Part shown: in pieces, positions 16,901-19,900 of the stretch
How positions within the stretch are numbered: the first letter of the stretch is position 1
Layout: each line of letters begins with the position of its first letter
Assembly: GCF_003018115.1 (NCBI RefSeq)
Contig: NZ_CP027457.1
Origin: Escherichia coli
GTDB lineage: Bacteria > Pseudomonadota > Gammaproteobacteria > Enterobacterales > Enterobacteriaceae
Length of the DNA: 64,000 bases
Direction: 5' to 3' (one strand)
Made by a program: the position numbers

Positions 16901-19900
16901 AGTACCACCATCATCTAGAGATAGTTTATGGTGAACATTATAATTTAGAGGAACATAGCCCTTTCTCATTCTTAAAAGGTCTTCGGCGTTGAATCTTCCA
17001 GATGCTTCGGAGGTTTTTGCAAGTTTGATAAGAAAATTTTTTCTTACAGTTTTGTTAAACTCCTTTCGTAAGTTAGCTAAGTCTTTTGAAGGTCTCTTAA
17101 TGTATATTATTTCTATTATGTCTATGCCATCAAGAAGTTTTTGTTGATCTCTAAGTTTGCCTAAGTAACTATTTATTTCTGTATATGTATCAACTTTAGA
17201 ACGCTTTGTTAAAAGAATAGATGCTGTTGCTATCGCTATGCCCGCTGTTTTTTCATTTAGTATTTGATCATAGCCTTTGATTGCATCTCCACCCAGTTTT
17301 TCCGCAGTATCTCTGAATCCTTCAATGTTCCCATTGTATACGCCACCAGCAGCAAGTAGCCTGCCAACAGCTTTGCTGTTTAACGTTTTGAAACGATTAT
17401 TTGTTTGGTTTTTTGAATTTGGTAAAAACAAACGGTTATAATTTTCAGGGAGTGCCAAATAGCTGAACTCGGTATTTGCGATAAGATGTTGACAGAGGAT
17501 AAATTCATAACTAACAGTTATTGTTTCTGTATCCATTTGATTTTGAATGATCTGATGATGAATAGCCGATAAAAAAGCGCCTCTTAGTTGTATATAATAA
17601 TACTTTTCCCATCTGCCAAATCTATTGATTCTATAAAAGTCAAATTCCATAAATAATTGCTCATTATTGTTAATGGAATTAATAAGTAATGGAGTGCTTT
17701 TATCAATTAATTTACAAAATGTTATACCCTGTAACTGTGAACCAAGCCCCGTATTAGTAATGCTATTTGCGAGTGAGAATGTAAATATTTCATTCTCATG
17801 CCCGCTCTGCCAGCGATTACCTATAGATTCAGTAGTCCCACAACCTGCGGAGATGCTTCCTTGTTGTTCTCCCGTTACTGTCAGGTAAACAATATTACTC
17901 ATCCCTGAAAAGTCCTTTTATGGCATGCTATTTTATCAATGGCACTATTATGCTTGTTAATTGTTATTTATTTACTCCAGGAAATTGTAGGCGTATATAT
18001 TAAAAAATAAAATATTACACTTTAGGAAGTAATTATGAGGTAAATCTCAATATATTTATTGGAAAAATAAATACATTAAAGGAAGGTATGCCGATTTTTA
18101 ATGACACCCTTTTCCCATCTCAGAAAAAGGGCACTATATTACTTCACCCGCGCCATAAAATACGCATCAACATATTCACCATTACGTAATGCGTACTTCT
18201 TGCCAGTCCCTTCAATCTCAAAGCCGAATTTTTTATAGACCTTAATTGCTGGCGCGTTATCGACGAACACCGTTAGCTCGATACGATCTACCCGCAACCA
18301 GTTGTCGCACATTTCAATCATCTCTCGCACCAGGGCGCTGGCGACGCCGCGGTTCTTCCAACGAGAGTCGACACAGATACCAAAATCGGCAACATGACTG
18401 CGGCGTGGGCGCTGTTGCACGTCAATGGTGAGATGGCCCACGACGTCTCCATCAATACAGGCGACGAGTTGCTTGATGCCGGGACGATCGGCGAGTCGCT
18501 CCTGCCACATATAATCGGAAGGATGAGGCACTTGTAGCGTGTTGTAATACACCTCCGGCTGGGCGTGAATCTGCCTGATGGCCTCGTAATCGCGCGTTTC
18601 AGCATGGCGTATCACTATCTCACTCATTCCTTTGTCCTCTTTGGGGTAAATGTCCCTTTCAACATCATTGACTTTCGAATGCGAGTCAAATGCATTTTTT
18701 TGCAAAAAGTGTTGGACAAGTGCGAATGAGAATGATTATTATTGTCTCGCGATCAGGAAGACCCTCGCGGAGAACCTGAAAGCACGACATTGCTCACATT
18801 GCTTCCAGTATTACTTAGCCAGCCGGGTGCTGGCTTTTTTTTTGATCTTTCGTTCTCAATTTATGCTCGGGAAGTGCTTGTGTTCGTTATGCGCACTCCA
18901 GTAGGAACCACGTCCGCTTTGCGCTAAGGTGTAAATAACCACCTTAAAAAGGACGAAATCATGGTCATCAACTGCGCCTTTATTGGCTTCGGCAAAAGCA
19001 CCACCCGTTACCATCTGCCGTATGTACTTAACCGCAAGGATAGCTGGCATGTCGCGCATATTTTTCGCCGCCATGCAAAGCCGGAAGAACAAGCTCCCAT
19101 TTACTCTCATATCCATTTCACCAGCGATCTCAACGAAGTGCTAAACGATCCCGATGTTAAGCTGGTTGTTGTCTGCACCCATGCGGACAGCCACTTCGAG
19201 TACGCGAAGCGCGCGCTGGAAGCCGGGAAAAATGTGCTGGTCGAAAAACCGTTCACTCCGACACTTGCGCAGGCGAAAGAGCTGTTTGCACTGGCGAAAA
19301 GCAAAGGGCTGACCGTCACGCCATATCAGAATCGTCGCTTTGATTCCTGCTTCCTGACGGCGAAAAAAGCGATTGAAAGCGGCAAGCTGGGAGAGATTGT
19401 TGAAGTGGAAAGCCATTTTGACTATTACCGCCCGGTCGCAGAAACCAAACCTGGGTTGCCGCAGGATGGCGCGTTCTATGGCCTTGGTGTGCATACGATG
19501 GACCAGATTATTTCTCTGTTCGGTCGCCCGGATCACGTCGCTTATGACATCCGCAGCCTGCGCAATAAAGCCAATCCTGACGATACTTTCGAAGCGCAAC
19601 TGTTTTATGGCGACCTGAAAGCCATCGTCAAAACCAGCCATCTGGTGAAAATCGATTATCCGAAATTTATCGTTCACGGTAAGAAAGGTTCGTTTATTAA
19701 ATACGGTATCGACCAGCAGGAAACCAGCCTGAAGGCTAATATTATGCCGGGCGAACCGGGATTCGCAGCGGATGATTCGGTCGGTGTGCTGGAGTATGTC
19801 AATGACGAGGGCGTGACGGTCAGAGAAGAGATGAAGCCGGAGATGGGCGATTACGGGCGCGTTTATGATGCGTTGTATCAAACAATCACCCACGGTGCGC

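Follow-up and report, generated by a model that had tools for sequence, protein, structure and literature searches.

RyhB-1 and RyhB-2 of Salmonella and the RyhB of Klebsiella belong to the same Rfam family as the RyhB small RNA (sRNA) of Escherichia coli, are repressed by Fur, and have in common a conserved core and a rho-independent terminator. In the annotation of E. coli K-12 MG1655, the corresponding gene is the 95-nt ncRNA ryhB (b4451), located at 3580922-3581016 on the complement strand between yhhX and yhhY. The role of RyhB in iron sparing is established, with about 50 targets (PMC4666370). The Fur site of the K-12 promoter, identical to the one described below, consists of four overlapping sites spread over 31 bp, the strongest of which (25.2 bits) is centred at -15, and binding of Fur to this site was confirmed by gel shift (PMC2189734).

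The locus examined here is part of a 64,000-nt stretch of E. coli DNA, the whole of which is referred to as the window and to which all positions refer unless stated otherwise. A unit of 143 nt comprising promoter, Fur box, sRNA and terminator (18706-18848) was 100% identical to K-12 MG1655. With a probability of roughly 98%, the locus is the canonical E. coli ryhB gene, an already known, ordinary textbook gene that is the same as that of the laboratory strain.

Identity of the RNA and its promoter

A sequence-only reading of the window had recognised a complete RyhB sRNA at this place and had proposed comparison with the RyhB covariance model. A search of the entire 64 kb with Rfam 15 yielded a match to RF00057 (RyhB) at 18778-18842 on the plus strand, with a score of 83.1 bits against a gathering score of 55 and an E value of 3.6e-14, covering model positions 1-67 of 67 and thus full-length. 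The RNA is accordingly present and intact as had been claimed. RyhB, with this one match, was the only family to reach its Rfam gathering score, and neither a second RyhB copy nor any other RNA family was detected at gathering thresholds in the 64-kb window. A permissive local re-scan of 18100-19100 recovered RyhB again (E value of 5.6e-16) together with a sub-threshold match to PrrF (RF00444; 21.3 bits against a gathering score of 90, E value of 0.53), and membership in the PrrF family was rejected on that score.

The RF00057 model is limited to the 3' two-thirds of the molecule. The window contains one exact copy, and no second, of the published 90-nt RyhB sequence of K-12 (18749-18838), and because this exact sequence is present the 5' part of RyhB is established by identity. 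The feature is given here in the form used by RefSeq for K-12 b4451, i.e. as an RNA of 95 nt at 18749-18843 on the plus strand, of which 18749-18838 is the classical 90-nt form.

The predicted fold consists of a 5' hairpin, a middle stem-loop that carries the target-pairing core, and a terminator hairpin. The 5' stem-loop (18749-18768, plus strand) lies outside the Rfam model and has the minimum free energy structure ((((...((....)).)))). The pairing core, corresponding to RyhB C28-U68, is located at 18776-18816 on the plus strand, includes the middle stem-loop as defined by the Rfam consensus pairs, and is identical to K-12; C28-U68 is the region that was used for the prediction of target hybrids (PMC4666370). 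Reading of the sequence also revealed an imperfect 9-nt tandem repeat in the core, composed of ACATTGCTC (18787-18795) and ACATTGCTT (18796-18804). The stability of the whole-RNA fold showed no excess over shuffled controls (z = -0.67), and fold energy gives no independent support for the assignment. The absence of excess fold stability is usual for Hfq-dependent sRNAs.

A consensus scan of 1 kb placed the promoter of ryhB immediately upstream, with a -35 hexamer TGGACA (18713-18718, plus strand) that is identical to K-12 and a -10 hexamer TATTAT (18737-18742, plus strand) whose last base lies 7 nt upstream of 18749, the annotated 5' end. The two hexamers agree with 10 of 12 consensus positions and are separated by an 18-nt spacer. 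Since a bare promoter match of this kind is at chance level (1 found against 0.9 expected in the 1-kb scan), the evidence for the promoter comes from its identity to the characterised K-12 promoter.

A cluster of Fur-binding sites was located at 18722-18746, without assignment to a strand, and comprises a core 19-bp box at 18728-18746 and an overlapping match at 18722-18740. Compared with the 19-bp Fur consensus GATAATGATAATCATTATC, the core box agrees at 16/19 positions on the minus strand and 15/19 on the plus strand, while the second match, shifted by 6 bp, agrees at 14/19. The core box outscored every other site among about 128,000 window positions and was the only match in the window with at most three mismatches; matches of this quality were found zero times in 100 dinucleotide shuffles. 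Other Fur-box-like sites, the next best at 14/19, were treated as chance matches; one of these (62908-62926) falls within feoB when coordinates are transferred from the annotation of strain F9792. The core box and the -10 hexamer overlap, as expected of a repressor site that acts by occlusion. The sequence-only reading had reported a Fur-box promoter, and the 16/19 box and its identity to K-12 bear this out, but the start that it had placed at 18724 leaves out the -35 hexamer.

Terminator and transcription toward yhhX

The RNA ends in a terminator hairpin (18817-18835, plus strand) with a 7-bp stem, AGCCAGC/GCTGGCT, whose arms occupy 18817-18823 and 18829-18835. The stem contains five G-C pairs, encloses a 5-nt loop (CGGGT), and has a calculated energy of -11.0 kcal/mol, compared with a published value of -10.7 kcal/mol for the hairpin of the RyhB terminator (PMC4509938). 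It is followed by a T9 tract (18835-18843, plus strand) specifying the U tail, which forms part of the Hfq-binding module (PMC4509938). The terminator had been described beforehand with this same stem and nine U residues; the stem was found as described, but the first T is the closing base of the stem and eight T, not nine, lie beyond it, the run being nine in all.

The terminator had also been called the strongest intrinsic terminator in the window. For a ranking, the sequence upstream of every run of at least five T was folded on both strands of the whole window, and hairpin and T tail were combined in a score of the d'Aubenton-Carafa type (hairpin energy per nucleotide plus a weighted T tail), the values of which are usable for ranking only. 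By this combined score the RyhB terminator came first (38.4), ahead of sites after livJ (1250-1276; 31.7) and after glgP (39075-39096; 28.2), and its T9 run is the longest homopolymer run of T or A in the window. By hairpin energy alone, however, both the livJ site (-16.2 kcal/mol) and the glgP site (-14.8 kcal/mol) are stronger than the RyhB hairpin, and the earlier description thus holds for the T run and the combined score but not for the hairpin.

The upstream neighbour yhhY (18139-18627, minus strand), which encodes a GNAT N-acetyltransferase, is divergent. The downstream neighbour yhhX (18961-19998, plus strand) encodes a GFO/IDH/MocA oxidoreductase of 345 aa, as indicated by its open reading frame, matches to Pfam PF01408 and PF02894, and annotation. 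E. coli synteny is therefore retained, with ryhB intergenic, yhhY divergent and yhhX co-oriented, and the orientation of ryhB with yhhX was correctly given in the sequence-only reading. The distance from the T tract to yhhX, on the same strand, is 117 nt. No further sigma-70-like site was found by consensus scan in 18300-19300, an interval that includes the sequence between the terminator and yhhX.

At the identical K-12 terminator, termination was about 80% efficient during normal growth, with about 20% read-through; termination rose under iron depletion or in stationary phase, and Hfq bound only the terminated form of RyhB and not the read-through products (PMC4509938). According to Morita et al., ryhB "seems to be co-transcribed" with yhhX, although by their own account proof was still to come (PMC4509938). 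In a transcriptome study of 2022, iron limitation raised yhhX in the wild type, whereas no rise was seen in a ryhB deletion mutant from which the promoter was missing as well (PMC8896160). Given a leaky terminator and an induction of yhhX that depends on the ryhB promoter region, read-through is a plausible source of yhhX mRNA, and terminator read-through from the ryhB promoter probably feeds yhhX. The stronger proposal, of a genuine ryhB-yhhX transcription unit under Fur control whose leaky terminator, closing more tightly under stress, determines how much sRNA is made relative to yhhX mRNA, is given even odds. If true, it would connect the iron-starvation response with an uncharacterised GFO/IDH/MocA oxidoreductase, as others have already proposed for K-12.

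The same observations allow a reading in which the element serves a ryhB-yhhX operon chiefly as its Fur-controlled leader or attenuator and sets the level of yhhX mRNA, with the short RNA as a by-product of termination. The placement of yhhX on the same strand 117 nt past the T tract, the position of the ryhB promoter as the only sigma-70-like promoter in 18300-19300, the read-through of about one transcript in five and the co-transcription suggested by the authors (PMC4509938), and the dependence of yhhX induction under iron limitation on the presence of the ryhB promoter (PMC8896160) are all consistent with such a role. The terminated RNA is, however, a proven trans-acting regulator of about 50 targets (PMC4666370), read-through products lose Hfq binding, and termination increases under iron stress, precisely when the promoter is on (PMC4509938); co-transcription itself, moreover, is a suggestion. 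We regard a predominantly leader function as doubtful, and on account of the trans-acting targets, the loss of Hfq binding on read-through and the stress-enhanced termination, any leader role would add to the sRNA function rather than replace it.

Conservation in E. coli and iron sparing in this strain

Alignment of the yhhY-yhhX intergenic region with K-12 MG1655 showed identity throughout 18678-18864. The four differences found all fall in the flanking spacer, outside the unit that extends from promoter to terminator: positions 18677, 18865 and 18867 each carry a base change, and there is an indel of 1 nt at 18872. Among complete E. coli genomes in RefSeq the ryhB locus was present in 5424/5426 and always chromosomal, and in 5386 of the 5424 genomes that carry it the 143-nt unit was at least 99% identical to that of the window. 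Two of the 5426 genomes gave no ryhB match, and a few gave matches in two or three places. A natural variant was observed in E. coli 23AR0151 (NZ_CP195448.1), a sputum isolate, in which a 9-nt tandem duplication (ACATTGCTC) in the pairing core, corresponding to window 18787-18804, turns the imperfect two-copy repeat into three copies.

Rare variants of this sort, i.e. the core duplication in one strain and the two genomes without a match, lend some colour to the idea that the ryhB copy of the window is a decayed or silenced relic and that iron sparing is inoperative in this strain. The promoter, Fur box, RNA and terminator are nevertheless without difference from the functional K-12 gene, and no evidence of decay or silencing was found in the window. 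This complete identity to K-12 rules out a decayed copy, to which we attach a very small probability. The notion that the region encodes a small protein instead of or besides the ncRNA, for which a mechanical ORF list offers a 61-codon ORF (18742-18927, plus strand) and an 84-codon ORF (18650-18904, plus strand), is next to impossible and effectively refuted by start position and frame, since the TTG start of the 61-codon ORF lies inside the promoter and precedes the transcript 5' end at 18749, so that this ORF could not be translated from RyhB, while a 1-nt deletion in K-12 at 18872 breaks the frame inside both ORFs and leaves the RNA part invariant, and the terminator lies within both.

No feature of the sequence speaks against the canonical ryhB gene preferred here, which would operate as described in the literature for K-12, where the sequence is the same. 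In iron-replete cells, Fe2+-Fur would occupy the cluster at 18722-18746, overlapping the -10 hexamer and blocking the sigma-70 promoter. When iron is scarce, Fur would leave and transcription would start at 18749, to stop in the T tract (18835-18843) after the 7-bp G+C-rich hairpin, giving an RNA of 90-95 nt. The hairpin, the 3' U tail and an internal A/U-rich stretch are expected to bind Hfq, and the single-stranded core (about nt 28-68) would pair with mRNAs for non-essential iron proteins, such as sodB, sdhCDAB, acnB, ftnA and bfr, at the regions where their translation is initiated. Pairing would block translation and bring about coupled decay by RNase E, sparing iron for essential uses. 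In unstressed cells, about a fifth of the transcripts would pass the terminator, probably supplying Fur-controlled transcription of yhhX.

For K-12, with the same sequence, induction of RyhB by iron limitation or by deletion of fur and Hfq-dependent repression of sodB, sdh and further targets have been demonstrated (PMC4509938, PMC2189734, PMC4666370). From the literature we infer that Fur repression, Hfq dependence, the target set, read-through and expression in this strain follow the K-12 pattern. It had been anticipated that iron-sparing regulation should operate in this strain, and this is a reasonable expectation, although Fur, Hfq and RNase E, which it also requires, are none of them encoded in the window. 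Because the ryhB gene is intact, the strain, which is of an enterotoxigenic (ETEC) lineage, may well be able to mount a Fur/RyhB iron-sparing response; beyond that and beyond correct annotation, the locus has little significance.

The lineage is shown by a 24-kb stretch around the locus that has a 100% match in four strains of the ETEC lineage, among them O169:H41 F6326-C1, F9792 and F8111-1SC3; a fifth strain was identical over this stretch except for about 85 bases. On the basis of this identity, the window is assigned to an E. coli chromosome of the ETEC O169:H41 lineage. The RefSeq/PGAP annotation of the closest strains, F9792 included, contains no feature under 18706-18848, where K-12 has one, and protein-only annotation or annotation-based surveys of these genomes would miss RyhB.

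Several other features of the window were observed. Between gntU and yhgN, which we take to be adjacent in K-12, the segment 24185-27483 (plus strand) carries two genes, overlapping by 94 nt, for a RecQ-like helicase of 698 aa and a DprA/SLOG protein of 431 aa. Their respective matches to PsyrT (1062 bits) and PsyrA (671 bits) among the PADLOC models identify them as a PsyrTA toxin-antitoxin/anti-phage pair; the segment occurs in 1651/5426 complete E. coli genomes. A type II toxin-antitoxin system with an acetyltransferase toxin, ataR/ataT, lies at about 1380-2180 (plus strand) between livJ and panM according to the annotation of F9792. At 16233-17902 (minus strand), yhhZ/tssD encodes a 392-aa orphan protein that combines an Hcp domain, to which the Pfam match (residues 18-139) is confined, with a long C-terminal extension resembling an HNH nuclease. 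It is followed in the window by an intact yrhA, a gene that in K-12 is a pseudogene split by IS1E.

Two further observations derive from the annotation of F9792, a strain in which the 24 kb compared showed 100% identity with the window. In that strain malQ is annotated as frameshifted and a pseudogene (NZ_CP024273.1 3617808-3619891, corresponding to window about 54880-56960). The glgP-glpD interval (NZ_CP024273.1 3633555-3635585; window about 39180-41220) contains a truncated pseudogene for a "substrate-binding domain-containing protein" and a hypothetical protein, both presumably outside the K-12 gene order.

Relation to known systems

Fur-repressed iron-sparing sRNAs are also found outside the enterobacteria, as PrrF1 and PrrF2 of Pseudomonas (RF00444), FsrA of Bacillus and IsrR of Staphylococcus, which are functional analogues of RyhB and not homologous to it. 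FsrA is cited as an iron-sparing sRNA in PMC4666370, and IsrR is treated as one in PMC9410917. The homologues and paralogues of RyhB in other enterobacteria differ in a divergent 5' part and, in some species, in the presence of two copies, whereas the window carries a single copy of the E. coli type.

With respect to the downstream gene, the nearest parallel is sgrS-setA, which like ryhB-yhhX combines an Hfq-dependent sRNA, a leaky rho-independent terminator and a co-oriented gene downstream (PMC4509938). Co-transcription was shown for sgrS-setA, whereas for ryhB-yhhX it is only inferred (PMC4509938, PMC8896160). The closest system remains ryhB of K-12 MG1655 (b4451; RF00057), which has the same promoter, Fur box, 95-nt RNA and terminator in a functional unit without differences, and in which yhhY, ryhB and yhhX follow one another in the same order and orientation as in the window.
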